A stretch of 61,817 nt of DNA from a virus (IMGVR_UViG_3300036906_000071:1-61817); one strand, 5' to 3'. Counted from the stretch's first letter, positions 20,523 to 61,817 are shown. Notes: a model not told the origin generated them from the sequence alone. A program made the numbers and translations.

Positions 20523-20523
20523 C

Positions 20524-23439: not shown

Positions 23440-23516
23440 TGGTTGCGGGGGCCGGATTTGAACCGGCGACCTGTGAGTTATGAGCCCACTGTTCTACCAG
23501 GCTGAACTACCCCGCT
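23440..23516 (-). tRNA. tRNA-Met(CAT), initiator-like variant
   Basis: Full cloverleaf with encoded CCA, unpaired 1:72 and T-loop TTCAAAT. Confidence 0.92.
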
Positions 23517-23533
23517 CAGCGCAGTATACTCAG

Positions 23534-37480: not shown

Positions 37481-37487
37481 CGTGTCC

Positions 37488-38233: not shown

Positions 38234-38242
38234 CGCTCGCTC

Positions 38243-42555: not shown

Positions 42556-42635
42556 CGATGCCGGCCCTCAGTTGCAAATACACATCGGCCCACGCCCCGG
42601 TGCTCCAGGGCGCGGGCGATGCGGTTGGCTTGGTT

Positions 42636-43010: not shown

Positions 43011-43048
43011 GATGTTGCTCCTTTTTTGACCCGCCGCGGCGGGAGATT

Positions 43049-44895: not shown

Positions 44896-44900
44896 CGCCT

Positions 44901-46128: not shown

Positions 46129-46151
46129 GTGCGGGCTCCTTGCTAAAGTTG

Positions 46152-46180
46152 CGCGGCGGGGTTTGTGAGGCCCCGCCGCG
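46152..46180 (-). terminator. Strong hairpin after the capsid gene
   Basis: CGCGGCGGGG...CCCCGCCGCG stem with a weak U-tract. Confidence 0.45.
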
Positions 46181-46202
46181 GACTGAATTGCAGCTCGGAC
46201 AA

Positions 46203-47501
46203 CTAGGCGGCTACGGTCAACGCTGGATTGATTCCCAGGTTGTGCGCCACCGCGTGGACCCACGGCTTGCGCGTGTACACCGTCCAGCTGTCCTGGAAGT
46301 GCGCATCGTAGGTTGTGGTGTGCTGCCCGTTAACAATCCGCTCATACCAGAAGCCCTTGATCGGCCCGGTCATGAACTTCTGGCTGCCCGGATAACGCGC
46401 CTTGCCCAGCAGGCTTGGCGCAATGTCGTACAGATAGTCCACGGCCGCAACCGAGTCCTCCTGCACATCCTTGCCGCCAATGGTCCAGACCCGCTTGCGG
46501 TTTGGCGAGATGTCCAGCGTCTGGGTCGTCTGCCCAGGCGAGTTCATCTCCACCCGCTTCGCAAAACCGAGCTGGTTGGCCGTCACGCGCTGCACCGGGT
46601 TGGTGTAGTAGAACGCGGTCTCCTGCTCGGCGTCCATCCCGTTCGAGAGCGACTTCCGCACCTCGAGCGAGTCGATCACGCCCAGCGATAGCGGCGCCGT
46701 GCCCGCATTCGCGCTGGCGGCCTGCACCTGCTCCACCGTCCGCTGAATGCCGAACATGTCGCCGGCCTGCGTTGCGTTGATGAGGTACTGCAGCCCTGCC
46801 GGCCCTACCGGCACCCCGCTGGCATAGTTCAGCGGGATCAGGGACCCGCCCGAGACAATGAGGGCTGGATAGTCCACCGTCACCGTGTCCACGGTCGCGC
46901 CCGTCGGCTTCGACTTGGCCAGGATCGTCACCTGCCCCAGCACGTTCATGTTCGCGTCGGTCGCCTGGTACACGTTGTTCAGGTCGAGCTGCCGGTTGCC
47001 GAAGCTCAGCATCGCCAGCGGCACTGGGTTTGCCCCGTTGACGGTGGCGTCCCCGGTCGCCAGAATGCCCTGGTTGTACCCCTGAAGCAGGCAGTTGCGG
47101 AAGTGCGCCATCTTCATCTTCGACTTCGCAATCAGCCGCGCCACCACGTCCGTGATGATCGGCCGCTGGTCCCCGCCAGCCTCCTCGCTGATGCGGTTCA
47201 TCAGGTCGGTCGAGGCAATGGCCACATCGTGGCTTACCGGAACGATGATGAACTGTAGGTACTCGGCCCCATTGCCCTGCGGCAGCGGCCCGCCATCCGG
47301 CGAGAGCCCTGCCACCTGCCCGCCACTGTCCACCTGCAGCGGCACGCGGAACTTCTCCGTGCCCACGTCGTAGGCGCTGATGGTGGCAATCCGTTTGTCC
47401 AGCCCCACATCGAGGTTCTGGCTCAATTCAATGTTCGTGTCGATCACCTGGCGCATTACGGCAATCGCCGACTGCGCTGTGTAGTTCACTGGAGGTGCCA
47501 T
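46203..47501 (-). CDS. Major capsid protein
   Basis: 432 aa after portal and scaffold; strong RBS; followed by a hairpin. Confidence 0.75.
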   Translation of the reverse strand: MAPPVNYTAQSAIAVMRQVIDTNIELSQNLDVGLDKRIATISAYDVGTEKFRVPLQVDSGGQVAGLSPDGGPLPQGNGAEYLQFIIVPVSHDVAIASTDLMNRISEEAGGDQRPIITDVVARLIAKSKMKMAHFRNCLLQGYNQGILATGDATVNGANPVPLAMLSFGNRQLDLNNVYQATDANMNVLGQVTILAKSKPTGATVDTVTVDYPALIVSGGSLIPLNYASGVPVGPAGLQYLINATQAGDMFGIQRTVEQVQAASANAGTAPLSLGVIDSLEVRKSLSNGMDAEQETAFYYTNPVQRVTANQLGFAKRVEMNSPGQTTQTLDISPNRKRVWTIGGKDVQEDSVAAVDYLYDIAPSLLGKARYPGSQKFMTGPIKGFWYERIVNGQHTTTYDAHFQDSWTVYTRKPWVHAVAHNLGINPALTVAA

Positions 47502-47614
47502 GGTTGTCTTCCCTCCCAGCTTTTACCGGCTGGGTGTGTATGGCGTTGTCCCTTCGTCACGCGCGGCCAGATGTGTTTCTTGCGCTTCGCCTGGCCCCGC
47601 GGCCTGCAAAATCG

Positions 47615-49267
47615 TCAATAACCGTACTTCAGCCGGGTCCGCGCGCTCATCAGGATGGCGGCCCTGTCCTCCTCGTCCCCTGCGGCCCAGCGCGGGTCCT
47701 TCTGCGCCGTCTCCCGCGCCTTCTCGCTCAACTGCGCCTCCGTCAGCACCGGCTGGCTTCCTCCCCCGGCGCTCTGCGGCTCGATGCGCGCCACCCCGGC
47801 AATCTTCTGCTGGCGGTCCGCCTCCCCTGCCTGGCTCTGCCGCAGCCCGTCCTGCAACTCTTTCACCTTGCGTTGAAGGATCGGCGTCAGATAGCTGGCG
47901 CGCAGCCGCGCCGCATTGGTCTCGCGCTGTTGCACCCCGGCCGGGCCCAGCCGCTGCAGCCGCTGGATCTCAGCCCGCTCCGTTGGCATCCCCATCACCG
48001 TCCGGTCGAACTCCGTCAGCGCCTCCACGGCAAACGCCGGTATGGTGCTTGGCTGCTGCGTCGCCGGATCGATCCATGGGCGCGTTATCAGGAACTCCGG
48101 GATTGCCTCGCCGCGCGCCTTGGCGGCGTCAAGGTAGGTGTCGATGTCCTTGCCCACGCCCTTCTGCCAGCTGACGCGCTGCGCGCCTTCGAACTGGCGT
48201 ACCGTGCTGGCCTGCGCGCCCTTTCCAGCCTCCTGCTGCTGGCGGTTGAACTCGGCCTGCTGCCGCTCCAGCCGCTCCTGAAACTGCTTTTGCTCCGGTG
48301 TCGCATCCTCCGGCAGCGGCGGCGGCGCCGCTGGCCCGGGATTCAGAAGGCTTAGCACATAGTTCAGCGCGTCCCGCGTGTATCCCGCATCCTCCAGCGC
48401 GGCCAGATCGGCGTCCTTTGCCGCCTGGTCCGGGTAGACGCCCTTTGTCTTCGCTTCCAGATCGCGGAGCTGGCCCAGGCTCTGGTCGCGCATCTCCGTT
48501 AGCTTCTCCAGGCTGGCCGGCGTTCTCAGGCATAGGTCGTAGTCCTTGCCATACACCGGCTGGCCGTCCGCCCCGCGCAGGGCCACGCCCTTGTCGTCCG
48601 TCTTTACAAACTGATCCTTCAGGCCGGTGTAGCCTGCCGTCCGCGCAGCCGGGTCGTCCACGCCCATCAGCATGTTGTGCCGCACATCCAGCACCACGTT
48701 GGCCTGGCGCGCCATGAACTGCGCAGCCTCCAGCGTCGGCGCCAGCGCCAGAATCGGCTTGGCCGCCTCGCTCGCCCGCGCAGCCTCCATCACCAGCTGC
48801 TGCGCCGCCGGGTTCGCCTCCAATGCCGCCTTCAGCGCCGGATCGGCGGCAATCGCATCGTCAAACGCCTTCGGCAAGGCCTCGGTCGCCGCCGCAGGCG
48901 GTGGTGTCTCCTTGCCAGCCTCCGCCGCTGGAACCTCCGCCGCTGGGACCTCCGCCTCCGCAGCCTCCGGGTTCTGCTGCGCCCACGCATCGTGCTCGGT
49001 AATGAACTTCCTCAAACCCTCTTCCGTCGGCTCATAGCCGCCCGACTGCGGCTCGGCTGGCGGTGCCGCTGCTGCTGCCGGGGTAGCCGGCACCCCTGGC
49101 GCTGCGGGCGCTGCCGGTGCTGCGGGCGTAGAGGGTGTTGCCGGCGCAGCCGGTGTGCTTGGCGGTGCCGCTGGCGTTGCTGGCGCGCTGGGCGTAGAGG
49201 GTGTTGCCGGCGCAGCCGGGGCTGGCGCTGGCGCTGCTGCTGCTACTGGCGTTACTGGCGTTGCCAT
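47615..49267 (-). CDS. Scaffold-like protein
   Basis: Pro/Ala-rich N-terminus, helical body; lies between portal and capsid. Confidence 0.65.
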   Translation of the reverse strand: MATPVTPVAAAAPAPAPAAPATPSTPSAPATPAAPPSTPAAPATPSTPAAPAAPAAPGVPATPAAAAAPPAEPQSGGYEPTEEGLRKFITEHDAWAQQNPEAAEAEVPAAEVPAAEAGKETPPPAAATEALPKAFDDAIAADPALKAALEANPAAQQLVMEAARASEAAKPILALAPTLEAAQFMARQANVVLDVRHNMLMGVDDPAARTAGYTGLKDQFVKTDDKGVALRGADGQPVYGKDYDLCLRTPASLEKLTEMRDQSLGQLRDLEAKTKGVYPDQAAKDADLAALEDAGYTRDALNYVLSLLNPGPAAPPPLPEDATPEQKQFQERLERQQAEFNRQQQEAGKGAQASTVRQFEGAQRVSWQKGVGKDIDTYLDAAKARGEAIPEFLITRPWIDPATQQPSTIPAFAVEALTEFDRTVMGMPTERAEIQRLQRLGPAGVQQRETNAARLRASYLTPILQRKVKELQDGLRQSQAGEADRQQKIAGVARIEPQSAGGGSQPVLTEAQLSEKARETAQKDPRWAAGDEEDRAAILMSARTRLKYGY

Positions 49268-49289
49268 AGTGGTTCTCCTTTATTTTGCG

Positions 49290-51851
49290 TTACTTGTTGA
49301 TTAAGTCCGCTGCTTTTACGGTTGTGTCCACAATCTCTTTGCCCGCGCTTACCTGCGCGCTGGCCGTGCCCTTGGTTAGCGATGGGTCCATCTGCGCAAT
49401 CTGGGCCAGCCGCAGGATCGCCGGCGCAGCCTGTTGCATCAATAGCTGGAACTCCTGCTGCATCGTCTGCTGCTGGGCGTCGGGCTGCTTTGGCGGCTGG
49501 CCGGCCTGGGTTATTCTCATCTGCCGCTGCGCCTGCTTCATCAGCTTCACCGTCCGCACCTCGCCGATCGCATCGTAGTAGAGCTGCCACCACTGCCATG
49601 CCGGGGTCCCATCGTACTGCCGGCTGGCAGTGTCCTGCATATACTTCGCAGCCACCCTCTCCGATATGTCCAGATTGTCGCTCAGCGATGGCGCCGCCGG
49701 CAGTTGTACCGGCTGCATTGTTCCATCCGCTCCCGCTGCGGCCTGCGGTGGCGCTGTCTTCAGCTCCGCCAGCTTCGCCAGGTCGCCCAGCGTCTTCAAC
49801 CGCTGGCTCTCGCTCGGCGCATTCGATCCTGGAACGATCGCCGTACATGCCTTCGCCTGGTTCTCCGGGTCGTCAAACCACTCCGCCGCAGCCGGGTTTT
49901 GGTTGTTCAGCGCGCTAAAGACCGACAGAATCGCCTCGCGTATCTCCTCCGCGGTCGCCGGCAGGTTCTGGTCCGGATCCTGGGTGAAGCTGCAATCCCC
50001 ATCCAGGTCGGCGGGATACACGGTCTCGTTCTGGTAGCTTCCGCCCTGGTCCTTGCGCACGTCCCAAAGCTGCTGGATCGCCCCCGCCTGCATCAGTTGC
50101 TTCAGCCAGTACACAATGTTCTCGTCAGACTGCGCGGCCTCCCGCTTGGCGTTCATCCAGTACCGCCGGAAGGTTGTCAGCGCCCGGTCCAGCATCTGCG
50201 CCTGGCCCATCCCGGTATCGACGCCCACCGTCGTGCCGGTCCCCTGCACCTGCGGCGGAAGCTCCGCCACCAGCATCAGGAAGGTGTACAGCGATGAAGC
50301 ATAGTTCCACATCTCGGGCGCCATCGGCGTGTCGAAATGCGCGAATGTATCGCCCAACGGCCTCGGTTCGCCATTGATCTTGTCGGGGACCGGGATAATC
50401 GTCATCGGCGACAGGCGCAAGGCGGCAATCTTTTTCTGGTCGCCCATCGACGCCCGCATCAGGTTCAGCCCCATCGATGCGCGCATAGCCTGCTCATCCA
50501 CCAGTTGATTGGCTGCGTTGATCCTGCGGTTGAATGGCACCACGCGGTTGGCGATCGCCGGCGGATACGCTCCAAATCCCTGCTGCAGTTTGCCCTGCGT
50601 CCACTCCCGCACCAGGCTCGCAGACCGGATCTCCGTCGTCTCCTCGCCCAGGTTCGCTATCATCAGCCCCTTGGGAAACAGCCGCTTCATCTTGTCGCCA
50701 AACTCTTTGTCGCCCGTCCGGTAGAAGGTCCGCGGCTGGCACCACACCTCGCTGTAGGTCACCGAGCTCTGGTTCATGTCGGAGGTCTGGTTGGCAGCCA
50801 TCGCATACCCTTCCAACCGGCGAAACCGCTCATACTCCGAGTTCGCGCTGGTCGGCGAGACCGCCCCCTCCTGGATCGAGTCCGCCAGGTCCGGGTGCAT
50901 CTCCCGTGCCTCGCCTATATCGATCTCCCACTCATGCGCCAGCAGCGGTGTGGCCGCAACGCGCTTCGCCTTCGGGTCCATGTCGATCTCGCGCGGATCG
51001 TGGATGGTCTCCTTCACCCCGGCGCGCGGCACCTCCTTCATGCCCGCCATGCGCAGTCCCGTGGTGCCGCCTTCGCCCTCGGCGTAGTACGACTCGGGCC
51101 CCAGCGTTGCTCCGCAGCCGGGGCACGCCGGAAGCTCTCCATGGCCGCCCGGCGCCAGCTCCGTCAGCGGCGTCTCCTTGCCGCACTGCCGGCACTTCAT
51201 CCGCGCCGGCGGCCGCACCTCAAAGTCCTCGTAGGCCGCCACCTGGTCCACGCCGAACAGATCGCCGTCGAAGACCGCCCGCACATGCCGGAAGTACGTC
51301 CCAAAATCGAATTGAGACTCGAAGGCCTCCGACAGCAGCTCCTCCGCCCCATTCTTGCGATGCACACTCTCGATCGCCGTCTTCGCCGCCTTCGCCGCCT
51401 TTACATCCTTCGGCACGGTGGCATCCACCGGGTCCACCACCGTGCGCGGCAATGCGCTCGCCAGTATCCCCGTCCAAACATTGCAGCACAGCAGCGTGAC
51501 GTTGGTGACAAAGGGTTCCAGGTCCGCGTTCTCACCCGGGGCCATCTGGTCCGATGCGCGATACTGCGCCAGCGCGTCGAACCAGCTGTTTGTCCCAGGG
51601 TTCCATCCCAGGCATTGCACACCCTTCCTGAAGAGCGAGTTGCGCCCCCAGTCGCGGAACAGCTCCAGCCGGTTGGTCATCCAACTGTCGCGGTACTGGC
51701 GAATGCAGTCCAGTATCTTGCGGCGGTCGGCGTCGTCGATCCCCAGATGGCTGAAGTCGCGCTTGCCCGGCTTGGGCGGCCCGCTCTGCGCGCTCTGGCG
51801 GGTTGTGCCGTCGTCGACGCCCGGCTCTCGAATTGCTATGCCTGATGCCAT
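49290..51851 (-). CDS. Portal protein, P22-like, with a zinc-ribbon insertion
   Basis: 853 aa, Gln-rich C-terminal tail, CRQC...CPGC insert; genomic position. Confidence 0.8.
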   Translation of the reverse strand: MASGIAIREPGVDDGTTRQSAQSGPPKPGKRDFSHLGIDDADRRKILDCIRQYRDSWMTNRLELFRDWGRNSLFRKGVQCLGWNPGTNSWFDALAQYRASDQMAPGENADLEPFVTNVTLLCCNVWTGILASALPRTVVDPVDATVPKDVKAAKAAKTAIESVHRKNGAEELLSEAFESQFDFGTYFRHVRAVFDGDLFGVDQVAAYEDFEVRPPARMKCRQCGKETPLTELAPGGHGELPACPGCGATLGPESYYAEGEGGTTGLRMAGMKEVPRAGVKETIHDPREIDMDPKAKRVAATPLLAHEWEIDIGEAREMHPDLADSIQEGAVSPTSANSEYERFRRLEGYAMAANQTSDMNQSSVTYSEVWCQPRTFYRTGDKEFGDKMKRLFPKGLMIANLGEETTEIRSASLVREWTQGKLQQGFGAYPPAIANRVVPFNRRINAANQLVDEQAMRASMGLNLMRASMGDQKKIAALRLSPMTIIPVPDKINGEPRPLGDTFAHFDTPMAPEMWNYASSLYTFLMLVAELPPQVQGTGTTVGVDTGMGQAQMLDRALTTFRRYWMNAKREAAQSDENIVYWLKQLMQAGAIQQLWDVRKDQGGSYQNETVYPADLDGDCSFTQDPDQNLPATAEEIREAILSVFSALNNQNPAAAEWFDDPENQAKACTAIVPGSNAPSESQRLKTLGDLAKLAELKTAPPQAAAGADGTMQPVQLPAAPSLSDNLDISERVAAKYMQDTASRQYDGTPAWQWWQLYYDAIGEVRTVKLMKQAQRQMRITQAGQPPKQPDAQQQTMQQEFQLLMQQAAPAILRLAQIAQMDPSLTKGTASAQVSAGKEIVDTTVKAADLINK

Positions 51852-51852
51852 G

Positions 51853-52176
51853 CTATCCCCCAGCCCTTATGCGCGATCCCGGCAGGCGTATCGCGCCGGC
51901 TTTCGCCGCATCGTTTGCCCACGTCTCAACGCTCTCGAAGGTGGCCTGCGTCCGCAGCGGCGGGTCTTTGCCCTCGACTGCCGCAGCCTCCGGCGTCTGG
52001 GCCCGCACCTCAAACGGCCGGCCACCAGCCGCTTCCGCTTCCGCTCCAACCGTCAACGGGTCTACGCCCAGCACCCGCAGATAGCGGTCCAGCAGCTCAC
52101 GGTTCAGCGCCTCCAGCGCGCGGATGCGCTCCTCGGCCGCGCGCAGCCTTCGCCCGCTTGCCAGTGGCCAGTTCAT
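51853..52176 (-). CDS. Hypothetical coiled-coil protein
   Basis: Overlapping stop/start packing. Confidence 0.65.
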   Translation of the reverse strand: MNWPLASGRRLRAAEERIRALEALNRELLDRYLRVLGVDPLTVGAEAEAAGGRPFEVRAQTPEAAAVEGKDPPLRTQATFESVETWANDAAKAGAIRLPGSRIRAGG

Positions 52177-52592: not shown

Positions 52593-53009
52593 TTATTGCG
52601 CGCCATTTCCCTCGTTGTCGGTCTTATCCTTGCGCTCAACGCTTGTTCTGTTGAAAGTGCTGCTCTTTCCCCCAAACTGTATTCTGCCCCCCAAACCGTG
52701 CAACAGCACAAGCAGCGTCATGAACACAGATCCAATGTCCCGGATCGATCGAAAGTCGTCACCAAGATCGCGGATGGCGCTGTTTGTTATATCGATCTTT
52801 TGGTCGATTTTGTCGAACCGCACCGCCATCCGCGTCTGCGTATCGCTCAGGTTGTCGATCCGCGTCGCGCTTACCGCTATCTGCGATTGCAGGCTGAGCT
52901 GGGAGTTGCTCTGCCCCCATACATCCACGCCAATTCCTATGCACACCGATATTGCGAGCGAACACAACACATAGAGCCATCTGGCAATGTGTTTCCCGAA
53001 GATCTTCAT
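52593..53009 (-). CDS. Membrane protein (signal/TM + coiled coil + TM), lysis candidate
   Basis: Hydrophobic N-terminus ending VWG|Q, heptad region, C-terminal TM helix. Confidence 0.65.
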   Translation of the reverse strand: MKIFGKHIARWLYVLCSLAISVCIGIGVDVWGQSNSQLSLQSQIAVSATRIDNLSDTQTRMAVRFDKIDQKIDITNSAIRDLGDDFRSIRDIGSVFMTLLVLLHGLGGRIQFGGKSSTFNRTSVERKDKTDNEGNGAQ

Positions 53010-53090
53010 CGTTTAGTCCCTCCGTCTACTGCTTGCATTGAGGGCGTTGCCAGGGTGTTGCTCCGCGTTTCTACCTGCTCGAGGGCGTTG

Positions 53091-53921
53091 CTACTTGCCC
53101 CAGCCAATCAGCAATCCGAAGATCGGCTGGTAGCCGGTGCCGTTCGATACCGACGACTTCATAAACCGCAGCGAAGGCATCAGATAGTAGTTCCCCTTCA
53201 CCTTGATGGCCACCAGGGCGCCACCGTTCCACTGCCACCCGGTGTTTGTCCCGCTCCAACTGATTCCCGCCGCCGTTGGAACGTACACCGGCACATTGCC
53301 GAGCGTGAATACCTTCTGCGCAATCCCGGCGCCAATGTTCGTGGTCACCGTAAAAGGCTTCATCGTGTTGGGCAGCGCGTCCACCGCGGTGAAGGCGTAG
53401 GTGCCAGACACGTTCAGCGCATGCGCATACAGCGCCGTGCCCGCCACCGAGGGCGAGGCATTCACGCTGTACGATCCGCCCGCGGCATAGAGATTCTGTA
53501 TGTCCGGCGTAGCTGTCTGCGCCTTCAGGTGCGTGGGGAATGCCAGGCCCGGGCCCAGCAGCAGCGCGCCAACAACTACTTTGGCGATGATGTTCTGTGC
53601 GGCAGCAGCCTGTTGTGCAGCGGCAGCAGCAACGGCGGCATCGGCCTGCTGTTGCACCGCGTCCGAAGGGCCGGCAAAGATCGTTGGGCTGATCACATGC
53701 AGCAGGACCGAGAGCGACACCAGTGCGGCAAATATCCCGGCGTGCTCCGGCTGCGCAAGCCAGTTGTGGGCCAGCGTGGGAACCCCAATCACGGCGGCCA
53801 GCGTTCCAATTCCATGAAGCAGTTGCGGTATCTTGACTGTCATCGGTGTTCTCTCCTTCGCTACGGCCTCAATCTTGTTGAAGTCGCTGTAAGCCTTCCA
53901 TAGTTTCACGGGGCTAAGCAT
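53091..53921 (-). CDS. Two-TM domain fused to an internal signal peptide and a putative 8-stranded beta-barrel
   Basis: Two hydrophobic helices, then LLLGPGLAFPTHLKA|Q, then eight amphipathic strands ending LLIGW. Confidence 0.7.
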   Translation of the reverse strand: MLSPVKLWKAYSDFNKIEAVAKERTPMTVKIPQLLHGIGTLAAVIGVPTLAHNWLAQPEHAGIFAALVSLSVLLHVISPTIFAGPSDAVQQQADAAVAAAAAQQAAAAQNIIAKVVVGALLLGPGLAFPTHLKAQTATPDIQNLYAAGGSYSVNASPSVAGTALYAHALNVSGTYAFTAVDALPNTMKPFTVTTNIGAGIAQKVFTLGNVPVYVPTAAGISWSGTNTGWQWNGGALVAIKVKGNYYLMPSLRFMKSSVSNGTGYQPIFGLLIGWGK

Positions 53922-54015
53922 TATGGCCCTCCTTCGGGAAGCAGGCCGCCAGCCCAGCTTCTGTCCCTGCGCTGGCGGCCCTGTTGAGTTGCAGCGGTTG
54001 GTGCGGACCCAATCC

Positions 54016-54354
54016 TTACTTCTTCTTAGCAGCCACCGGCTGCACGGGTATGTTCTTGTCGTTGGACCCGTCGATAGACGGTTGCGGTGGCTGGGCGGGA
54101 GCGGCCTTTGCCGCCTCCGCAGCCTTCATCTGGTCAAGCCAGTACTGGCACTCCTGGATCGCCCCCCCTGTGGCGTTGGCGTTGGCCACCATCTGGTCGT
54201 ACTGCTGCTTGAGCAGCACCAGCCGCGCCTCCAGCGCGCGTTGGGTGACGCCCTGCGGCGCCGGTTGCGGTGCGGGCGGGGCGGCCGGCTGCTGGGCAGA
54301 GACCATAAGGCCCCCACCCAGCAGCAGGATCAGGCAAATCGCTTGGTGGCGCAT
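54016..54354 (-). CDS. Exported coiled-coil protein
   Basis: MRHQAICLILLLGGGLMVSA|QQ. Confidence 0.75.
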   Translation of the reverse strand: MRHQAICLILLLGGGLMVSAQQPAAPPAPQPAPQGVTQRALEARLVLLKQQYDQMVANANATGGAIQECQYWLDQMKAAEAAKAAPAQPPQPSIDGSNDKNIPVQPVAAKKK

Positions 54355-54375
54355 GGCGGTGCTCCTTGCTTGGTT

Positions 54376-55596
54376 CTAGGTTCCCGGCGTGCCCTTGTAG
54401 GCGATGTAGGCGTCGGTGCCGTTGACCTTGATCTTCAGGTAGCCCGTCACCGATCCAGCGGATGCCGTGCTTCCGTTGATGAATGCAGAGCCGTTGTTTG
54501 ACAGATCGAACAGATACCCAGCCTTCGAGTAGCCGTAGATCAGCGAGTTGAAGGTGGTTGCCGTGGTGTTGGTCAGCACCGCCGAATCGCAAAAGGCGCA
54601 GGTCACGCTGGGGCCTGTCGCTCCTGCATCGCTCCATATCGGGGTGACGTGCGACCCGGAGGTCAGTGTGGCTGCTGAGATGTCCAACTGCCCCAGCAAG
54701 CCGGCGATCCATGCGGTGCCGGCGACCGTCCCGGCCAGGATGAGCTTTCCTTGGGTGCCGTTCGCATAACCGCCAGCGACTGTCGTTCCGGCAGCGAAGG
54801 TTGCAGTCCCGCGAACGCCCGTCAGATTGTTCCCGCCATCCGAGAAGGAGGCGTTGGTGGTTGTGATTGCGCCGATAATCGTGCGCACACTGCCCGGCGT
54901 CGCTGTGGTCTGCGTGTTGCTCACCGACAATATGCCCGGCGTATAGGCCAGCGCCAGTTGGGTGTACGCCGCGCCGGTCCAGGTGTAGTAGGTCATCGGC
55001 GCCGTTGTCACGTCGACGATCATCAGGTTGGTTGTGCCAAAGGCGGCAGGGATCGCAGCAATTTCGGCGGCCGGCGTCTGGCTTCCCGGCAGGCTGGCAA
55101 TGTACGTCTTCCACGCCGGGTCCAGAACGACCATCGTCGGATAGGCCGCGCTCTTATTGTTGTAGAGCGCCTCCTGCAGCCCGCCCGTGCCGGATTTGAC
55201 GTAGAAGGTGATGTGGCTGTGGTTGGTCGACGAGCTAAAGCCGCAGCTCGATCCGGTCTGGAAGGTGGTCGATGGGCTCACCACCTCGCTGTTGGCCGTG
55301 TTGCTGTCCTGGAGATACAGCGGGAACGGGGTTGCCGCCGGGCCAAAGACGAAGTAGGGATTGGACGACGATCCGTTCGGGTAGGTCTGGCAACTTCCCG
55401 GCCCGGTCGGTCCGGTGTTCCAGTTGAAGTTGTTTGCGCCCGAACCCTGCATATTTGCCTGGGCATAGTCGATCGCAAAGACCCAGTGGAAGTTCGCGCT
55501 GCCGTACTGGCTCTGCGCCAGCGCGGGAACAGCACAGGTCAACGCAAGGATTGCTGTCGCCACCATGGCGACACCGATTGCTCGTAGCGTTTTCAT
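54376..55596 (-). CDS. Signal-peptide-bearing fibre/spike-like protein
   Basis: ...AVPALA|QS; Thr/Gly-rich; C-terminal GYLKIKVNGTDAYIAY resembles fibre tips. Confidence 0.75.
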   Translation of the reverse strand: MKTLRAIGVAMVATAILALTCAVPALAQSQYGSANFHWVFAIDYAQANMQGSGANNFNWNTGPTGPGSCQTYPNGSSSNPYFVFGPAATPFPLYLQDSNTANSEVVSPSTTFQTGSSCGFSSSTNHSHITFYVKSGTGGLQEALYNNKSAAYPTMVVLDPAWKTYIASLPGSQTPAAEIAAIPAAFGTTNLMIVDVTTAPMTYYTWTGAAYTQLALAYTPGILSVSNTQTTATPGSVRTIIGAITTTNASFSDGGNNLTGVRGTATFAAGTTVAGGYANGTQGKLILAGTVAGTAWIAGLLGQLDISAATLTSGSHVTPIWSDAGATGPSVTCAFCDSAVLTNTTATTFNSLIYGYSKAGYLFDLSNNGSAFINGSTASAGSVTGYLKIKVNGTDAYIAYKGTPGT

Positions 55597-55717
55597 GGTT
55601 TCTCTTTTCTGAGGGCCTCTGGCCGCTCAACCAGCGCCCTCGGACGCTGGACAATTCAGATTGGTTGCAAGGGGCGGAAGCTCCCCGCCCCTCGGACGAT
55701 TGCGCGCGCTGCCGTGC

Positions 55718-56230
55718 TTAACTTTGCGGTGCTGGCGGATCGGGGTCTTCCGGGGCCTCGGTCTGTGCCGGGGCTTCCGGCTGGGCTGGTGCGAGCGGCG
55801 CTTCCGGCTGGGCTGGTGCCTGTGCGAGCAGCGCTTCCGGCTGGGCAGGCGCCTGTGCGAGCGCCTGCTCTGCGGCAACCGCGTCCAGGTCTTCAGCCGA
55901 CGGCAGGTCCACAGCCGGCGGTTGCGGCGGGTTCGGGTCTGGCGGCGCGACAGATGGTGGATAGACGCCCGGCGTACCGGGCGCATCCGAGGCCACGCGC
56001 ACGCTGAATGCGCGCTGGATATAGCCGTCGATGTCCTTCGCCAACCCCGGTGCGTTTGGGTCCAGATACACCAGGGTGACGTGCTCCTCCGCTGGCAATG
56101 TCTTGCCGTCACCGTCCAGCAGCGCGTTGCCGCCGCGCGAGGGCAGAAACAATTCGCTCGATACAACCAGCGCCACTACCACCGGCCCATCCTGCACCGG
56201 ACGATACATTACCGCATCTCCGTATTTCAT
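55718..56230 (-). CDS. Hypothetical protein with PAQPEA repeats
   Basis: AAGGAG RBS; MKYGDAVMY... Confidence 0.7.
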   Translation of the reverse strand: MKYGDAVMYRPVQDGPVVVALVVSSELFLPSRGGNALLDGDGKTLPAEEHVTLVYLDPNAPGLAKDIDGYIQRAFSVRVASDAPGTPGVYPPSVAPPDPNPPQPPAVDLPSAEDLDAVAAEQALAQAPAQPEALLAQAPAQPEAPLAPAQPEAPAQTEAPEDPDPPAPQS

Positions 56231-56252
56231 TGTGTTTCTCCTTTGCTGCGAT

Positions 56253-57707
56253 TTAATTGTGGTGCGCATGACAATAAACATCTGGTGTTACGCCACCTCC
56301 GCCGTTTTGCATGATTTGAGTTACATGCAATTCGAGCAAACCAGCAGGTGCCGTTGGTAAAGGTGTTGTCCCAATGCTCACTGAAAGACTGCTGGGCGAG
56401 CTTAGCGCGTTGGCAAAACAGAATACTTGATAGGATGTGTCTGGCATCGCTCCCGGTAGATAGGCTGCGGCCAAACACTGGTTCGGTTGTCCTGTGCCAA
56501 TTGTACAAGCTGCCGGAATTGTCCAGTAGTAATCGATTGTAATTGTAGCTGTTAGGCAGGGAGATCCCGAATCACCCGCGCCGCCATACGCGTCCCAGTT
56601 CATGCAGTGGCCATGAACTCCCGCGCCGTTGGACGTGACAACCTCACCCTCCGTGCCCGTTCCGTTCAGCTTTATGTTGGTCGCCTTCGGCGATGTTGGA
56701 TGGTCCGTCACAATGAAAAGCGGCGATTGCGTGAAGTTGATCGCAGGCTCGACCGGCAGCGCCGTGCCCGCCAGCATGATGGTCTGGTAGTTGATCGTGC
56801 TCGACTCCGAGCAGGGCGTTGCCGACGGCATAAAGGTGTGGTAGGCGTCGCTCCCAGCGCACAGCGTGTATCCTGTTCCCACGCCCAGCCCGCCATTGAC
56901 GATGTAGCCGCCTAGAGAGTTGGTTGCGCCCAGCTCGTTGTCGATCGGCCAGCCCGGCACATTGGTTCCCACACCCAGCGCCAGCACCTGCAGTAGCGGA
57001 TAGCCGGCTAAACTCAGCGGCCCGGAGATCGACTGTAACCCGTGGTTGTACGGAATCGCCTGGATCGTCGATCCGTAGGTCGCCACTCCGTTGTAGAGCG
57101 GCAACCCAGTGTTGAGGTTATATGTCTGTCCCGGCCCCAGCAACTGCCACTGCATCGGGTACCCAGGCAACGCATTCCCGTTGCGGTCGATCAGCGACAC
57201 ATTGTACCCGGTCCCGGTCGGCCATCCCGCATCGTTGGCCGTCTGCTCGCACAGTGTTGTGTTCGTCGCCGGCAGCACCGCCCCGCTGGCCAATGCCGCC
57301 GCCTGCGTGTATACCGCGCTCCCGCTGGTCGTTCCCTGCAACGTCTCCGCCCCGCTCGCCGTGCCGATGTAGACTCCCATCCCCACCGCCAGCGCAGGCA
57401 TCCCCGGCGGCGGAGCCACCTGCATGGATCCCGGCGCGCTCAACTGCGCGCTCGTCTCCGGGCTGGCCAGCGTCGTGTGCCCCGCCGCATCCAGCCACGC
57501 AATCTCCACATAGTAGGTCGCGGCAGGCAGAGCGCCGCTATAGACGGGCGCAAGCGTTGGCACCGTCAGAGGATTCAGCAACCCCACCACGCTCCCATCC
57601 ACGCTGGTTGCGCAGCTCGAAGTCGACTGCACCACCACCGGCACCGTCTGCGCGCGCACCCCTGCGGCCAGCAATACCATCGTCAAATAAGTTGCAATCC
57701 TCTTCAT
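56253..57707 (-). CDS. Signal-peptide-bearing fibre-like protein
   Basis: MKRIATYLTMVLLAAGVRA|QT; Cys-containing beta-rich modules. Confidence 0.8.
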   Translation of the reverse strand: MKRIATYLTMVLLAAGVRAQTVPVVVQSTSSCATSVDGSVVGLLNPLTVPTLAPVYSGALPAATYYVEIAWLDAAGHTTLASPETSAQLSAPGSMQVAPPPGMPALAVGMGVYIGTASGAETLQGTTSGSAVYTQAAALASGAVLPATNTTLCEQTANDAGWPTGTGYNVSLIDRNGNALPGYPMQWQLLGPGQTYNLNTGLPLYNGVATYGSTIQAIPYNHGLQSISGPLSLAGYPLLQVLALGVGTNVPGWPIDNELGATNSLGGYIVNGGLGVGTGYTLCAGSDAYHTFMPSATPCSESSTINYQTIMLAGTALPVEPAINFTQSPLFIVTDHPTSPKATNIKLNGTGTEGEVVTSNGAGVHGHCMNWDAYGGAGDSGSPCLTATITIDYYWTIPAACTIGTGQPNQCLAAAYLPGAMPDTSYQVFCFANALSSPSSLSVSIGTTPLPTAPAGLLELHVTQIMQNGGGGVTPDVYCHAHHN

Positions 57708-57768
57708 CGTTCGCCTCAGTCTGCCGCCGCGACCTGCGGCATGGGCACTGCGTAGTTTGCTTCCAGCT

Positions 57769-58164
57769 TTACTGCTCCGCCTGCGTCTGTCCACTGATAA
57801 CTGTAAGCTGATTGTCGCCAGCCACCACAGCCGTTCCCATTGCGATGCGGGTGTTGTGCGGCATAATCATGCAGCCCTCTGAGGCGGTATGATTCATCGC
57901 TTCATTGTCCCCGTGACAGAAAAAGTCTGCGCGTCCAAACATTTCATTCGCCGGGTCGGGGATGAGCCGCATGGCAATAATCCCCACCTTTGGATCGGTG
58001 CATGGAGGCATGATGGTATAGAGTCCCTGCGGAAGCGGCCCAACCTTGGGAACGTCCTGCATGGCTGGATTGTTTAGTCCAGATCCACACCCCGCGTAAC
58101 CCGTGGCCATTTCCTCGCCGTCATGCGTCAAGATTCCTGTCGATTGCTGATATTGAAATGCCAT
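57769..58164 (-). CDS. Tlde1/DUF2778 L,D-peptidase-fold protein, probable endolysin
   Basis: GPLPQGLYTI...FGRADFFCHGD...ASEGC with His and Cys catalytic residues. Confidence 0.8.
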   Translation of the reverse strand: MAFQYQQSTGILTHDGEEMATGYAGCGSGLNNPAMQDVPKVGPLPQGLYTIMPPCTDPKVGIIAMRLIPDPANEMFGRADFFCHGDNEAMNHTASEGCMIMPHNTRIAMGTAVVAGDNQLTVISGQTQAEQ

Positions 58165-58229
58165 TCAAAACCTCATATTTGCCCACCATCGTTCGCGTAC
58201 TATCGCCGGCATCGCTTCCGCTGCAAACC

Positions 58230-58555
58230 TTTGAGGCGCGGCTCCGATTCTGGCTAACCAGTCACCGTTTTATCCCTTGCGGGAGAGACCTGTCAGTTCC
58301 GCCTCAAACTCTTTTCCCGTCCCAAACCGATAAGGATGTCCGTGCGACAACCATCCTCCGGCTCGACTTAGCAGACCGATAAGGCGTTCTGAACAGCCTC
58401 CGGCCCGCGACGGGAAACTTTATAAACCCCTAAAATGTGGGGCCGTTCGGACTTGCAGATACTAGGCTTCGACCGATCTTACAGCTTATTATGGACGATC
58501 AATCGGCTTGGCGTCCAGCTTATACCTCTCCACCGTTCTCATCCTACTAGGCCCC
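58230..58555 (-). ncRNA. Array of three stem-closed structured RNA candidates
   Basis: Closing stems at 58230-58308, 58313-58417 and 58439-58555; G-U pairs and a GCAA tetraloop favour the minus strand. Confidence 0.6.
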
Positions 58556-58576
58556 TTCGTCGGGGGTATCTCAAAT

Positions 58577-58616
58577 TGGTTGCGGACCGAAGAGTTGAAC
58601 TTCGCCTCTCGGCTTC
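58577..58616 (-). pseudogene. 3' half of a tRNA
   Basis: CGAAG-TTCAACT-CTTCG T-arm plus GTCCGCA-ACCA; the 5' half is absent and the fragment abuts the fibre stop codon. Confidence 0.7.
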
Positions 58617-58617
58617 A

Positions 58618-61600
58618 TCAATGTGTCAACCACGCATACGCCGATCCGCTGTAGCTGCAAATCACCGCAGCCGTGACTGTGCCGCCGCTCGTATATGCGG
58701 TCATGTACAGGGGCGCGGCTGCATCGCTCACAACAGCCGTATCTCCATTTATTCCAGAGGCGCATGTGGGGAGAGGGGTGCCTGCCGCACTATAACCTCC
58801 ACCCAAACTACCACCTACAGGGAAAAAAGCCCCTCCTGCGGTCGGCTGTAAATATAGCGCCATTGGAGTCACCGACGTATCGGCATACCATTTATAGGAT
58901 GAGGAAGCAGCGATAGCCCCTGGCATCTCAAACAGTTCGTATACACCGGGCGTCCCACTGGCACCAGTCACGGCGCTTAGGGTCGTCCAAGTCAAATTAT
59001 TGTCAGAATACTGTATGTTGAAGGCTGTCGGATTTTCACCGCTATAACTATCGGGAACAATGGCAACCTCTGCGACGGGAACCGAAGAACCGAAATCGTA
59101 CTCCACATAACCGCTTGATCCGCCAGCGTTGGACGCCCAGCGATTGGGGAAAGACCCAACCTGACTGAGCTGATTGATGTCGGTCCCATATCCTGTGTTC
59201 GGGGAATACCATGTCCCGCCCGCCGGAGCCTGAATTACTCCCGCTACCGCACGGAATTGCAATGCTGACATGGACCAGTAAGTACCGCCTGCTGAGGAGA
59301 CTAAGACCATTCTCCAGTAGCGGTGAAAGGGGGGAGGAGCGCCAGACCCGCTATATGTAGTCGGTACGCTCCCGGCTCCAGTATAGGTCGTCCATGTTGC
59401 GCTCGCTGGGCAGTAGGTGATTTTTCCGTCCTGTGAGGAAACATAAGCTCCGAGCCGGCTGCAACTTCCGGTGGGCGCTGCCGCTGGCCCAAGCACTCCG
59501 CCAGGAGGCAAAAAGCTGCCATCACCAAAATACTGAAAATCAGTAGAATTTACGGTCCCTAAATACTCATCAACCACATTTGCCTTCAAACCCATCACCA
59601 AGGAATTAGTAAGTGAATTATTGCCCTGGTAGTTGAAACAAAAGTATGCTTGATTATAAGGCGGATTGTTGCCCTGCCCAAATGAATGGCACTGGGCGCG
59701 CCCGGTAGCATAAGTCAAATTGGGCATATAGTCCACATCGGTTAGACCATATTGGTTAGGGTTGTTTCCCGTGCTGGTCTGACGATAAAAATTGTTCACG
59801 CCCACTTGGTGCTGAATCGTATTTACCACAAAATCGTCTGCATCTTGAGCGGCGTCCGTTATCGAAAAGGCATCATAGCTATCGACCAGTGGCGTGTGTA
59901 TTTCGCCCTTTGCTTGCAGTCTTCCAGAGTCTAATAGAGACGATCCATAGTAAATGTAGCTTTTCGCCTTTGTTGCTGATGACTGCGATGCCATCGCTTC
60001 GTTCAGTGTCTGCGCGTAGGGCTGCACTCCGCCCGGAGCTATCCCGCCGTTTGAAGCGATTAGGTTGGTGTCCATGAAATTACTAAGTACCGATCCCACG
60101 TCAGCTAGATTGTCCCAATATTCTCCAGCGTACAAGCCTGTAGTGTTGAAGCTGGTTTTTCCTTGGCTGTACAGCCAATTATTTATCCTAGCTGCGTTGA
60201 TAAACACTGATGGGCAACTCATGTTGTTCCAGGGCGCAAAAGTGGAAGTTCCCTGCACTACAACCCACCCATCCGTGTGCGCCTTCGCCCAGATGGATTG
60301 CAGATGACCCTCGATCGTTGCCGCCGTCGCGCAGTCGTGCAGGTCGTTATTGAAGATGTCGTTGATGATAAGGTACTCAGGCGTGTTCCCCGTCATTACC
60401 GGGCTAATCGAGTGGAACAAAGCGGTGTAGTCAGAGTCGATGCCTGCCAAATAATTATTGGAATCGAGTATTATTTTGAATGCACCGTGTCCATTGAAGA
60501 AGGGCTGCTGCATCGTCTGTTGAGCCAGAAAGTAGTTTGCGCGCTGCACCGTGCCGCCTGTAATCGTCGCCGTGGCATAGGTGTAGTTGAACTCAAACTG
60601 TGTGCTGCTCAATCCTGTTGAGAGAACCTGGAAAAACCCGTATCCAGTGGTGGCGTTGCTAAACGGACTCGGCGGGGATGGGAACCCTGTTACATTAGCG
60701 CCAACAAAAACCCAGTCGCTCACCGCCAGCCCATTCGTGCCGCTGTTGGTGATGGTGCAGACCGTCCCATTGCAGCTTCCGCCCGTCACTGCAATCTGCG
60801 GGGCCAGCACTTGCGTGTCATCGGCCAGAATCGAGTCGCCGGTGAAGACGTAGAGCGTGTTCGCCGGGTTGTAGGACACCGATCCTCCGCCCGACGGTGC
60901 GCCCCCATCAACAAGGCTCCATGCATTCGCTGTTTTTTGGAACTCCGCAAGATGCCCGGGCGTAGGTGGTGCTGCTGCGCTGAAGACCGGAAGGAGTTTA
61001 TCCGCGCCACTGGCCCATATATGCCAGTTATTATAGGTACTATCGTAAAGAATTTGGCCCGCATACATAGTATTGCCTCCGCCCACCTGCGGAAGAAATA
61101 CTGAAGCATTGGAAAAATCATAAGTGGCTCCTGGCGCTATCCCACCCAAAATATCAGCGAGCGTCGGTTGGGCCTGGGTAAAAGCTCCAGTTATTGCTGA
61201 ATATCCAGTGAGATACTGGTGCGTAACAGCAGCAGCTGTCGCCGCTGCTGTTGCCGCCGCGTAACAGGGGTTTGGAGTGCTCGCGGTTGTGTACTGCACA
61301 TTCTGGCCATTCGTCGGTGCGAACCCCGTGCAGAACGGAACCGCATTCAGTCCCTTCACGGTCGCCGCCACGCTCCCGCTTCCAGATCCCGTCACATCCC
61401 CGGTGAGCGCGGTGATTCCGCTGCTGCCTGCGCTGAACGCGCTCCATGCCGTCCCATTGGTCTGGCACAGCACAGTATGCGTGCTGCCGCCCGTGGTGCA
61501 GTCCGTCGCGCTCGTCCCGTCCATCACCGAGTAGATTGTGCCCACTGGCGGCGTAGCAGCGTCTGGCAGTGTCGCCACAGTTGCCGGTTGCAAATCCAGC

Positions 61601-61817
61601 CCAGGAAACGGCGCATTGGGATCGACACCCAGCGTGTTGATCGATGGGTTGTAGAACGCCGGGGGAACCACCTGGATCGCTGTCGTCGCCGGGGGCGGCG
61701 TCCCGGTGTAGTAGACGATCAGCGCAACGTTGGCAATGTTCATCTTTCCGTGGTTGCCAGTTTGTCCATAGATGTCAGCCGTAAAAGATGCTCCAGATAT
61801 CAGTGTTGGATCGATTG
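58618..61817 (-). CDS. C-terminal part of the ~1,380-aa fibre-like protein; SGNH-like and discoidin-like domains
   Basis: FTGDSI motif; RYWRM...YVEYDFG...FNIQYSDN; continuous with 1-1070. Confidence 0.85.
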   Translation of the reverse strand, partial: IDPTLISGASFTADIYGQTGNHGKMNIANVALIVYYTGTPPPATTAIQVVPPAFYNPSINTLGVDPNAPFPGLDLQPATVATLPDAATPPVGTIYSVMDGTSATDCTTGGSTHTVLCQTNGTAWSAFSAGSSGITALTGDVTGSGSGSVAATVKGLNAVPFCTGFAPTNGQNVQYTTASTPNPCYAAATAAATAAAVTHQYLTGYSAITGAFTQAQPTLADILGGIAPGATYDFSNASVFLPQVGGGNTMYAGQILYDSTYNNWHIWASGADKLLPVFSAAAPPTPGHLAEFQKTANAWSLVDGGAPSGGGSVSYNPANTLYVFTGDSILADDTQVLAPQIAVTGGSCNGTVCTITNSGTNGLAVSDWVFVGANVTGFPSPPSPFSNATTGYGFFQVLSTGLSSTQFEFNYTYATATITGGTVQRANYFLAQQTMQQPFFNGHGAFKIILDSNNYLAGIDSDYTALFHSISPVMTGNTPEYLIINDIFNNDLHDCATAATIEGHLQSIWAKAHTDGWVVVQGTSTFAPWNNMSCPSVFINAARINNWLYSQGKTSFNTTGLYAGEYWDNLADVGSVLSNFMDTNLIASNGGIAPGGVQPYAQTLNEAMASQSSATKAKSYIYYGSSLLDSGRLQAKGEIHTPLVDSYDAFSITDAAQDADDFVVNTIQHQVGVNNFYRQTSTGNNPNQYGLTDVDYMPNLTYATGRAQCHSFGQGNNPPYNQAYFCFNYQGNNSLTNSLVMGLKANVVDEYLGTVNSTDFQYFGDGSFLPPGGVLGPAAAPTGSCSRLGAYVSSQDGKITYCPASATWTTYTGAGSVPTTYSGSGAPPPFHRYWRMVLVSSAGGTYWSMSALQFRAVAGVIQAPAGGTWYSPNTGYGTDINQLSQVGSFPNRWASNAGGSSGYVEYDFGSSVPVAEVAIVPDSYSGENPTAFNIQYSDNNLTWTTLSAVTGASGTPGVYELFEMPGAIAASSSYKWYADTSVTPMALYLQPTAGGAFFPVGGSLGGGYSAAGTPLPTCASGINGDTAVVSDAAAPLYMTAYTSGGTVTAAVICSYSGSAYAWLTH
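61691..61817. repeat. Terminal direct repeat, copy 2
   Basis: Identical to 1-127. Confidence 0.95.

Follow-up and report, generated by a model that had tools for sequence, protein, structure and literature searches.

Introduction

The fibres and tailspikes of known tailed phages fold in the cytoplasm and are leaderless. Classical examples are P22 gp9, T7 gp17, the K1-specific lyase and endosialidase spikes, and the spikes of multi-spike phages such as CBA120. To our knowledge, textbook tailed-phage morphogenesis is entirely cytoplasmic. When a gene product carries a signal peptide, this is frequently held against its being a virion part. The coat proteins of filamentous phages (pIII and pVIII of Ff) have signal peptides for the general secretory (Sec) pathway; pIII forms disulfides in the periplasm, and the particle is completed at the envelope. 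Here, we describe a cluster of late genes in a viral DNA of 61,817 nucleotides, IMGVR_UViG_3300036906_000071, which at its full length is called the window. Four proteins of this cluster, 1380, 484, 406, and 112 amino acids (aa) long, start with canonical Sec leaders, as judged from their sequences.

An initial annotation of the window had proposed that receptor-binding parts of this phage are exported and join the virion outside the cytoplasm. The underlying observation was confirmed and is much broader than the window. Extracytoplasmic completion of the virion is plausible.

Sec-Type Leaders in the Late Gene Cluster

Leaders were called with a home-made heuristic for the n-, h-, and c-regions. 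It flagged seven of the 51 open reading frames (ORFs) of the greedy set and, in addition, the 1380-aa protein. Seven of these eight positives are in a ten-gene stretch, 51853..1070, which wraps around the ends of the window. In our own count, leaders are present in five of the ten genes in this stretch and in one of the 46 genes elsewhere (Fisher p = 3.6e-4). The ORF 52176-52556 was judged to be a false positive because its prophage relatives have no such N-terminus. The eighth positive, 9225-9554 on the minus strand, encodes a 109-aa protein with a clear leader ending in GAQA↓Q (the arrow marks the predicted cut) and lies in the early region, far from the cluster.

The n-region contains two to four Lys/Arg in all four leaders, with K/R inside the first 2-11 residues. 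The hydrophobic uncharged core determined by the heuristic is 16 residues long in the 1380-aa protein, 11 in the 484-aa protein, and 15 in the 112-aa protein. In the 406-aa protein the heuristic overran, and the core is about 18 residues by eye, from A6 to V23. Signal peptidase I sites have small residues at positions -3 and -1. The residues at -3 to -1 and the following Gln are C-A-A↓Q in the 1380-aa protein, V-R-A↓Q in the 484-aa protein (GVRA↓Q), A-L-A↓Q in the 406-aa protein (PALA↓Q), and V-S-A↓Q in the 112-aa protein (VSA↓Q). No twin-arginine motif, the mark of Tat export, was seen beside any hydrophobic core when the leaders were read by sequence.

The initial annotation had listed five N-termini with a leader followed by Gln, and all five read as stated. 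The fifth belongs to the 138-aa protein at 52593-53009 and ends in VWG↓Q. As leaders of fibre-type proteins, the first four hold, and this one looks more like a signal anchor. Its core is 18 residues long, its topology fits an i-spanin, and it shows a weak match to DUF2570 (E 0.0084, 16.5 bits against a cut-off of 26.6). For this protein, a signal-anchor or i-spanin/lysis-type identity is more likely than a role as a fibre. The heuristic gave no positive among the portal-like, capsid-like, adaptor, and 1161-aa "nozzle" proteins, in agreement with the earlier statement that portal, capsid, and nozzle are leaderless.

The lipobox consensus is L-[AS]-[GAS]-C. The leader of the 1380-aa protein ends in LASC-AA↓Q, with a lipobox-like L22-A-S-C25 followed by Gln28. 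The LASC lipobox reported earlier is thus present, but it is not conserved: the leaders of homologues mostly end in ...SAQ or ...GRAQ, or hold Cys in the non-lipobox contexts VRC, GHC, and SEC. For this reason, the 1380-aa protein was not classed as a lipoprotein. The 112-aa protein was considered as an o-spanin and rejected; it has Gly instead of the lipobox Cys, and its gene travels with the 406-type C-terminal domain, not with lysis genes. In other viral loci (L002 7200-7481; L003/L004 10762-11064), the leader core of the 112-aa homologue closes with a lipobox-like ..GGC, and some phages may have this partner in lipoprotein form.

Conservation of the Leaders and the Gln Habit

The initial annotation had named the retention of leaders in homologues as a check, and leaders are retained in three families. 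The 484-aa protein has 228 relatives. Among the 120 listed, 111 have a leader and nine are truncated at the N-terminus, starting inside the leader or the domain; no clear full-length leaderless form was seen among them. The heuristic alone flags 86 of the 120, and the number 111 was reached once the sequences were anchored at the conserved Cys motif. A search with residues 1-356 of the 1380-aa protein gave 30 representatives, 27 of them flagged; of the remaining three, two start past the first domain, and one has a visible leader missed by the heuristic. The 406-aa family consists of 40 relatives, 31 with and nine without a leader. The genomic context of two leaderless members (P0023 and P0036) was sought and not found.

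No residue reaches a majority in the leader columns of the alignments, and the columns directly past Gln are strongly conserved. As read from the alignments, a drifting leader with a fixed boundary is the evolution pattern of cleaved signal peptides. Gln is possible at position +1 in 50 of 58 homologue leaders.

The same habit is seen in likely hosts. In 322 host ORFs from two prophage-bearing genomes of Terriglobales (G403 and G404; L047-L066), 24 of the 56 heuristic positives show A-x-A↓Q. Since phage and host leaders end in the same way, the phage leaders look adapted to the host signal peptidase. The habit resembles the Q-rule of Bacteroidetes, for which passages of PMC5837995 and PMC10653852 describe Gln exposed after signal peptidase I cleavage. 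The string "Acidobacteri" does not occur in the main text of PMC5837995. These comparisons support the leaders as real, selected export signals, and export of the leader-bearing proteins appears very probable.

Cysteines of the Mature Proteins

The mature 1380-aa protein contains 20 Cys, which form ten sequential local pairs; the gap between the two partners is 5-39 residues, and that from one pair to the next is 42-216. Random placement gave such pairing in nine of 100,000 trials (p = 9e-5). The first pair in its N-terminal domain, C83 and C103, is invariant in homologues. The 484-aa protein has 10 mature Cys without significant pairing (p = 0.31), and the 406-aa protein has four, including one conserved CxxC. 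Closely spaced Cys pairs, described earlier for the fibre-like proteins in general, accordingly reach significance in the 1380-aa protein and not in the 484-aa protein. Cys-richness alone is not specific, because the leaderless 1161-aa protein has 18 Cys, which are unpaired (p = 0.35).

Leader and CxxC tend to occur together in the 406-aa family. Both are present in 23 members and neither in eight; eight have the leader only and one has CxxC only (Fisher p = 0.0012, not corrected for relatedness). Seven of the eight leader-bearing members without CxxC match the N-terminal domain only, and the single leaderless member with CxxC looks truncated. That leader and cysteines are kept together or are both missing fits what export to an oxidising compartment would predict.

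Fibre-Like Character of the Leader-Bearing Proteins

Three types of N-terminal domains were found directly after the leaders: A (YVTLxGxLxGxNGxP), B (CATSxDGSVVG), and C (LYAxxFxxW). They are carried by proteins of 257-1587 aa with unrelated C-terminal parts. The domains in the C-terminal parts are carbohydrate-binding or beta-helical: F5/8 type C in the window, and Ice_binding-like, Laminin_G_3, and GH16 in relatives. Six homologues of the 484-aa family were scanned; four have Pfam Gp53-like_C ("putative tail fiber") and one has K1-lyase_C, all above the cut-off. Precomputed annotations of the 120 listed rows of this family include 13 Gp53-like_C and one K1-lyase_C.

The 484-aa protein consists of N-domain B, a beta-sandwich similar to immunoglobulin or fibronectin type III (Ig/FN3) domains, and a variable C-terminal part. 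Its model has a confident beta-sandwich at about residues 40-150, with 27 BFVD matches at E <= 0.001 to phage tail proteins. The best named match is a Bacillus phage protein, and the gene of its RefSeq copy is labelled "tail protein". The AlphaFold monomer of the 406-aa protein is poor, with a predicted local distance difference test (pLDDT) value of 60.7. The wide VIA-align search with residues 221-342 of this protein gave middling beta-solenoid matches (best Z 9.1). Foldseek searches, which had been proposed as a check, gave no PDB match at E <= 0.001 for either the 406-aa or the 484-aa model, and ESM Atlas gave no usable match for the 484-aa model. Sequence search of the 1065-aa C-terminal part of the 1380-aa protein against PDB gave 0 matches.

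Trimer prediction, a further check proposed earlier, was positive. Three copies of the C-terminal domain of the 406-aa protein (residues 216-406) are predicted to form an intertwined homotrimer with a score of 0.86 against 0.00 for the best control; in calibration this mark was met by 20 of 30 proteins solved as one-chain pairs and by one of 23 single chains, and the trimer run differs from the calibration in its own alignment and in the three copies. Contact agreement between runs was at least 95%, and partner pLDDT was at least 86.

The 112-aa protein has a conserved helical core flanked by Pro-rich linkers, and its homologue follows the gene for a 406-type C-terminal domain in five of five viral loci. 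Two of these loci, L004 and L005, have unrelated terminase/portal/capsid backbones and carry the 406-type C-terminal domain and the 112-type gene behind a different N-terminal domain. The pair sits after the portal gene in L004 and after the major head protein gene in L005. A C-terminal domain travelling with a small partner behind a lineage-specific N-terminal domain is the classical exchange pattern of a fibre plus its chaperone. Together, these features support the 1380-, 484-, 406-, and 112-aa proteins as fibre- or spike-like late proteins. Of the earlier proposal of exported receptor-binding parts, two components are supported: the leaders behave as export signals and the proteins are fibre-like. 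The third, docking on virions at lysis, competes with a role in the envelope apart from virions, and the proteins may instead belong to the cell surface, as the initial annotation also considered.

Related Viral Contigs, Prophages, and Host

In related viral contigs, leader-flagged genes account for six of six cluster genes in L002, five of seven in L007, three of six in L009, and four of five in L010. Two of the unflagged genes in L007, L009, and L010 have a hydrophobic leader by eye; the rest are of the 187-aa type, a GT4 glycosyltransferase, and one unknown. The GT4 gene, at L007 15555-16544, is leaderless, lies within the leader-bearing cluster, and also matches "GT4 in conflict systems". 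L009 has a 400-aa gene at the matching position.

In the order to which the L011 genome belongs, 19 of 401 genomes contain the window-related family, three of these being flagged unpublished; none of 401 genomes taken from the whole phylum contains it. Four checked sites of window genes (G403, G731, G744, and G404) are all prophages related to the window phage. In the G403 prophage, the portal and nozzle homologues enclose an 893-aa homologue with a leader, and further leader-bearing homologues border the capsid gene. The scan of metagenomes gave 14 loci, mostly short. L011, the sole locus from the genome-collection scan, was rejected as a spurious 31-residue match beside a kinase gene. The portal-based search for relatives gave none among viral contigs or in the phage collection. 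Near-identical DNA was found in 20 of 24 listed runs from 16 studies, mostly of peat. One homologue is assigned by its source to a metagenome-assembled genome (MAG) of Terracidiphilus, which together with the related prophages points to a Terriglobales-type Acidobacteriota host.

Leader-Bearing Proteins in Tunturi 1

Tunturi 1 (PP887698) is a cultured podophage of Tunturiibacter psychrotolerans (strain X5P2), which belongs to Acidobacteria. No sequence similarity between Tunturi 1 and the window was detectable. Leaders were found in its gp12, gp13, gp14 ("tail spike protein"), gp16, and gp17 ("virion structural protein"); the other structural proteins have none. The gp12-gp17 block lies between a tail protein gene and the lysis genes. 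The four large leader-bearing proteins have even numbers of mature Cys, 20, 10, 20, and 32, in local pairs (p = 0.00015 to 0.0045), and the leaderless 1307-aa gp31 has seven Cys. Passages of PMC11924767 describe lytic infection cycles for Tunturi 1. Two other phages served as controls, Tunturi 3, from the same host strain, and Tunturi 4, from a sister species. Among structural and lysis genes, the heuristic flagged none of 22 coding sequences in Tunturi 3 and one of 24 in Tunturi 4.

Proposed Assembly Route and Its Alternatives

Tentatively, we favour the reading that the 1380-, 484-, and 406-aa proteins are modular receptor-binding or depolymerase-type fibres, which are exported and then docked on virions at lysis, with the 112-aa protein as a small partner; doubt and credence are nearly balanced here, with doubt slightly ahead. 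The partner is possibly a periplasmic assembly chaperone. Late in infection, the fibres would be synthesised as Sec pre-proteins and pass in unfolded form into the periplasm, where signal peptidase I would cut them immediately ahead of Gln. Folding, trimerisation, and formation of local disulfides would follow in the periplasm. Meanwhile, the DNA-filled podovirus particle would be assembled in the cytoplasm from leaderless proteins. A holin-type membrane protein and the leaderless Tlde1-type wall enzyme would breach the inner membrane and the wall, so that particles mix with fibres, and the fibres would dock via their conserved N-domains (A, B, and C). The sequences show the leaders and how they are conserved, the cysteine signature, the modular fibre-like build, a predicted trimer, and gene positions within late or structural operons. 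From these we infer export, cleavage, and disulfides, and with the largest step virion docking.

Late docking is favoured because the N-terminal domains resemble docking modules, because the genes are embedded in structural operons, and because 2382 aa of coding sequence here and about 4100 aa in Tunturi 1 are given to these proteins with no other fibre candidate visible. Among the leaderless proteins of the window, no fibre candidate was recognised in PHROGs and Pfam scans. Late addition is physically plausible, since it has long been known that P22 spikes can be added in vitro to finished heads. With a shade more reserve, we extend this reading to at least two unrelated podovirus lineages of Acidobacteria phages, including Tunturi 1; they may complete their virions outside the cytoplasm with fibres that leave the cytoplasm through Sec, are cut before Gln, form disulfides and trimers in the periplasm with the help of an exported chaperone, and are added at lysis.

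Several points weigh against this assembly route. The heuristic is not a trained signal-peptide predictor. The topology is awkward, as the fibres would stay in the periplasm until lysis, apart from the heads in the cytoplasm. The temperate nature of the phage also counts against the route, as does the start of the cluster four small genes past the integrase. The fibre candidates of the window itself have no match to a curated tail-fibre family in PHROGs or Pfam. In Tunturi 1, the depositors assigned the names "tail spike" and "virion structural" by homology, and the main text of the Tunturi paper (PMC11924767) contains none of the terms "signal peptide", "spike", and "mass spectrometry". The tail fibres of Tunturi 3 and Tunturi 4 are leaderless and Cys-poor, and for this reason the leader is taken as a strategy of the lineage, not a requirement of the host. 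Passages of PMC6199706 report that the phage target proteins of diversity-generating retroelements (DGRs) have no signal peptides, which is taken there as a sign of phage origin. In the literature searched, with subscription journals largely outside it, no description of fibres or spikes with Sec leaders in tailed phages was found; the initial annotation likewise knew of no characterised example. Finally, the cassette of the 406-type C-terminal domain and the 112-type gene is placed differently in different phages, as morons are.

This variable position also fits the main rival, in which the proteins are exported but are not virion-bound. They would be late enzymes or lectins, free in the periplasm or, after lysis, in slime, acting on the cell's own polysaccharides or slime, and the true receptor-binding protein would be a leaderless one. 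Such proteins might strip or mask the polysaccharide receptors of the infected cell, or loosen exopolysaccharide so that progeny are not trapped. All of the export evidence is shared by this explanation. The C-terminal parts are of carbohydrate-binding or carbohydrate-cleaving types, a GT4 gene lies inside the L007 cluster, and large leaderless proteins of unassigned function are encoded behind the nozzle gene. In passages of PMC13507307, signal peptides are reported for 5% of prophage carbohydrate-active enzymes (CAZymes; 3261/64,678). However, N-terminal domains common to two to four paralogues per genome with swapped C-terminal parts are a hallmark of docking, homologues carry the tip domains of tail fibres, and their genes are mixed in with those for portal, nozzle, and capsid. 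The cost in coding sequence given above is high for free proteins, and the cell surface is out of reach from the periplasm without a further secretion step. We consider this rival rather unlikely, clearly behind docking at lysis.

It is improbable that the N-termini are membrane anchors, or are used in part of the molecules (dual localisation), with fibres assembled in the cytoplasm or at the inner membrane face. The protein at 52593-53009 does look anchor-like, and cleavage is a sequence-based prediction. Against this, the cores are 11-16 residues long in three of the four leaders, and hundreds of homologues show small residues at -3 and -1 with Gln at a fixed distance from the mature domain. 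The paired cysteines, which are lost in leaderless homologues, favour an oxidising compartment.

Slightly more improbable again is cargo for lysogenic conversion, that is, surface or periplasmic proteins expressed from the prophage for adhesion, nutrient capture, or phage exclusion. The integrase gene lies four small genes upstream on the same strand, and the GC content of the 1380-aa gene is foreign (48-56% in this region against about 63% for the genome). Porphyromonas phage proteins with signal peptides obeying the host Gln rule are read in this way in passages of PMC10367356. However, the same signature is found in Tunturi 1, which is described as lytic, and the cluster here contains an endolysin-like gene and abuts the portal gene. 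In prophages the genes lie among structural genes, and the genome survey located the family at its four checked sites in related prophages, with none in the phylum sample and 19 of 401 genomes in the order.

A start-codon artefact or chance hydrophobic N-termini are a negligible explanation: high GC gives many alternative starts, including a longer GTG-started frame for 56253-57794, but homologues from independent assemblies begin at the same leader, the positives are clustered, and Tunturi 3 and Tunturi 4 are nearly free of them.

Genome Organization and Neighbouring Genes

The window is a complete circular temperate podovirus-like phage. Positions 1-127 are identical to 61691-61817, so the 127-bp ends are an assembly overlap and the true genome is a circle of 61,690 bp. 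The IMG/VR record gives direct terminal repeats and rates completeness at 100%. The 1380-aa gene crosses the 127-bp repeat and is therefore split into two open-ended ORFs when the window is read linearly. The minus strand carries nearly all of the long genes. The features are listed in Table 1.

Table 1. Coordinates of the late gene cluster and of other recognised genes in the window.
Feature	Coordinates	Strand	Remarks
5' part of 1380-aa gene	1..1070	minus	ATG at 1070; leader residues 1-27 (1070-990), then N-domain type A
Remainder of 1380-aa gene	58618..61817	minus	Resumes at 61690; F5/8 type C lectin domain near C-terminus
131-aa Tlde1-domain protein (L,D-transpeptidase-like fold), no leader	57769..58164	minus	Pfam 1.4e-11; phrog_24118 1.2e-33
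484-aa fibre-like protein	56253..57707	minus	Leader residues 1-19 (57707-57651), Gln20; N-domain type B
187-aa Pro/Ala-rich protein, no leader	55718..56281	minus	Start likely at internal MKYGD; cluster-internal also in L007 and L009
406-aa fibre-like protein	54376..55596	minus	Leader residues 1-27 (55596-55516), Gln28; N-domain type C
112-aa small exported partner (predicted)	54016..54354	minus	Leader residues 1-20 (54354-54295), Gln21
276-aa membrane protein	53091..53921	minus	N-half with hydrophobic segments; beta-rich C-half ending in aromatic residues
138-aa protein	52593..53009	minus	Single N-terminal 18-residue hydrophobic segment
853-aa portal-like protein, no leader	49290..51851	minus	First gene of head/tail block downstream of cluster
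235-aa SU10_adaptor-like head-tail adaptor, no leader	43049..43756	minus	E 1.2e-5, 26.2 bits against Pfam cut-off 27
Tyrosine integrase	2570-3757		Recognised gene
GroEL-type chaperonin (Cpn60_TCP1, 6.1e-62)	12904-14574	minus	

Along transcription, the order begins with the integrase gene, four small genes, the 1380-aa gene across the junction, and the 131-aa Tlde1-domain gene. It continues with the 484-, 187-, 406-, 112-, 276-, and 138-aa genes and two small genes, and ends with the portal-like gene and the remaining head/tail block. The leader-bearing genes and the lysis genes are tightly packed on the same strand immediately upstream of the portal gene.

The Tlde1-domain protein is a probable endolysin located within the cluster. 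The Tlde1 domain, known from type VI effectors, occupies the expected endolysin position here and in L010 (11558-11923); in L002, a Phage_lysozyme gene (14780-15193) is in its place. The 276-aa protein is a candidate holin or envelope-disruption protein, possibly a holin that either carries a fused outer-envelope disruptor or serves as one itself. Its homologue in L010 (10518-11396) adjoins the Tlde1 gene.

The name "portal" is based on position and size, and the window protein has no family match. Its homologues in L002 and in the prophages of G403, G731, G744, and G404 adjoin homologues of the 432-aa capsid-like, adaptor, and 1161-aa proteins. Residues 220-246 of the portal-like protein contain a CxxC...CxxC zinc-ribbon-like insert, which is kept in the L002 relative (16215-17174). 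The presence of an SU10-type head-tail adaptor indicates a podovirus-type tail. The other head/tail proteins of the window showed no family match when ten head/tail proteins were compared with PHROGs and Pfam.

Just downstream of the portal-like gene, in a scaffold-like position, a 550-aa gene (47615-49267) contains a degenerate 9-nt periodic repeat at 49062-49229, which encodes an Ala/Gly/Pro-rich tract. The 3891-aa protein (23534-35209, minus strand) has zero Cys; its residues 673-785 resemble RelA_SpoT weakly and below threshold (E 2.6e-4, 21.7 bits against a cut-off of 27). Its 404-aa and 486-aa neighbours are likewise Cys-free. The leaderless proteins encoded behind the nozzle gene are Cys-free or Cys-poor and are possibly located inside the virion or ejected from it.

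Further recognised genes encode a DUF5131 protein, a receiver-domain protein, and an N6/N4 DNA methylase. L009 contains, at 691-2430, a chaperonin copy 40% identical to the GroEL-type gene of the window. The early region has a 69-nt direct repeat (11780-11848 and 12109-12177), 96% identical and 329 nt apart.

Two sites of the window, 60873-61361 and 58216-58230, stand out in public runs. Contigs replace or skip 376-487 bases within the 1380-aa gene. One DNA run has a 38-kb phage contig that stops at 58216, and its word depth climbs from about 15 to 43-177 across this gene. The 1380-aa gene seems to be common to several co-occurring phages or strains. Promoter-like and terminator-like sites are near chance (5 against 4.0 expected, and 8 against 8.1 expected). 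Two metatranscriptome libraries contain contig pieces on the capsid/adaptor genes and the cluster genes, which as contigs cannot rank expression, may include DNA carry-over, and leave the uncovered bins uninformative.

Comparison with Known Systems

If docking at lysis is true, it would represent a two-compartment assembly pathway, which is not known to have been described for tailed phages. Export of fibres would make it possible for tailed-virion assembly to be split over two cell compartments, and for receptor-binding proteins to be stabilised by disulfides in Gram-negative hosts. Pipelines that discard leader-bearing proteins as "host-like" would then overlook what determines host range in a major group of soil phages. 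If the proteins are instead free after export, a large, conserved, exported lectin/glycanase arsenal in phages of abundant peat bacteria would still bear on slime and receptor handling. The question is directly testable, as Tunturi 1 and its host are cultured.

The proteins described here are similar to the classical fibres and tailspikes of Caudoviricetes in their conserved N-terminal part, exchangeable C-terminal domains, trimer (predicted here), small downstream partner gene, and late operon. The fibre tip domains Gp53-like_C and K1-lyase_C occur in homologues of the 484-aa protein. They differ from the classical fibres in that every large member has a Sec leader ending before Gln, and in their paired cysteines. 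With filamentous phages they would share virion proteins with Sec signal peptides, if the proposed virion role is correct. In filamentous phages, no head is pre-assembled and the particles leave the cell by extrusion, without lysis, whereas a DNA-filled tailed particle in the cytoplasm, followed by lysis, is proposed here.

Sec-exported lysis proteins, such as endolysins with signal peptides or signal-arrest-release (SAR) sequences and spanins, are similarly late, use the host Sec pathway, and wait in the envelope, and the cluster here is interleaved with lysis genes. Those proteins are small effectors, whereas the proteins here are 400-1600 aa long, modular, and fibre-like, and the probable wall enzyme (Tlde1) is leaderless. 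The functionally unassigned signal-peptide proteins of Porphyromonas gingivalis phages, in the account given in passages of PMC10367356, likewise have leaders following the Gln-exposing habit of their host; they belong to another host phylum, are not described there as fibre-like, and are read as host-modifying. Tunturi 1 differs from the window phage in being a lytic isolate without sequence relation to it, and resembles it as an Acidobacteria podophage with a block of large, leader-bearing, Cys-paired proteins (gp12-gp17) encoded between a tail protein gene and the lysis genes.

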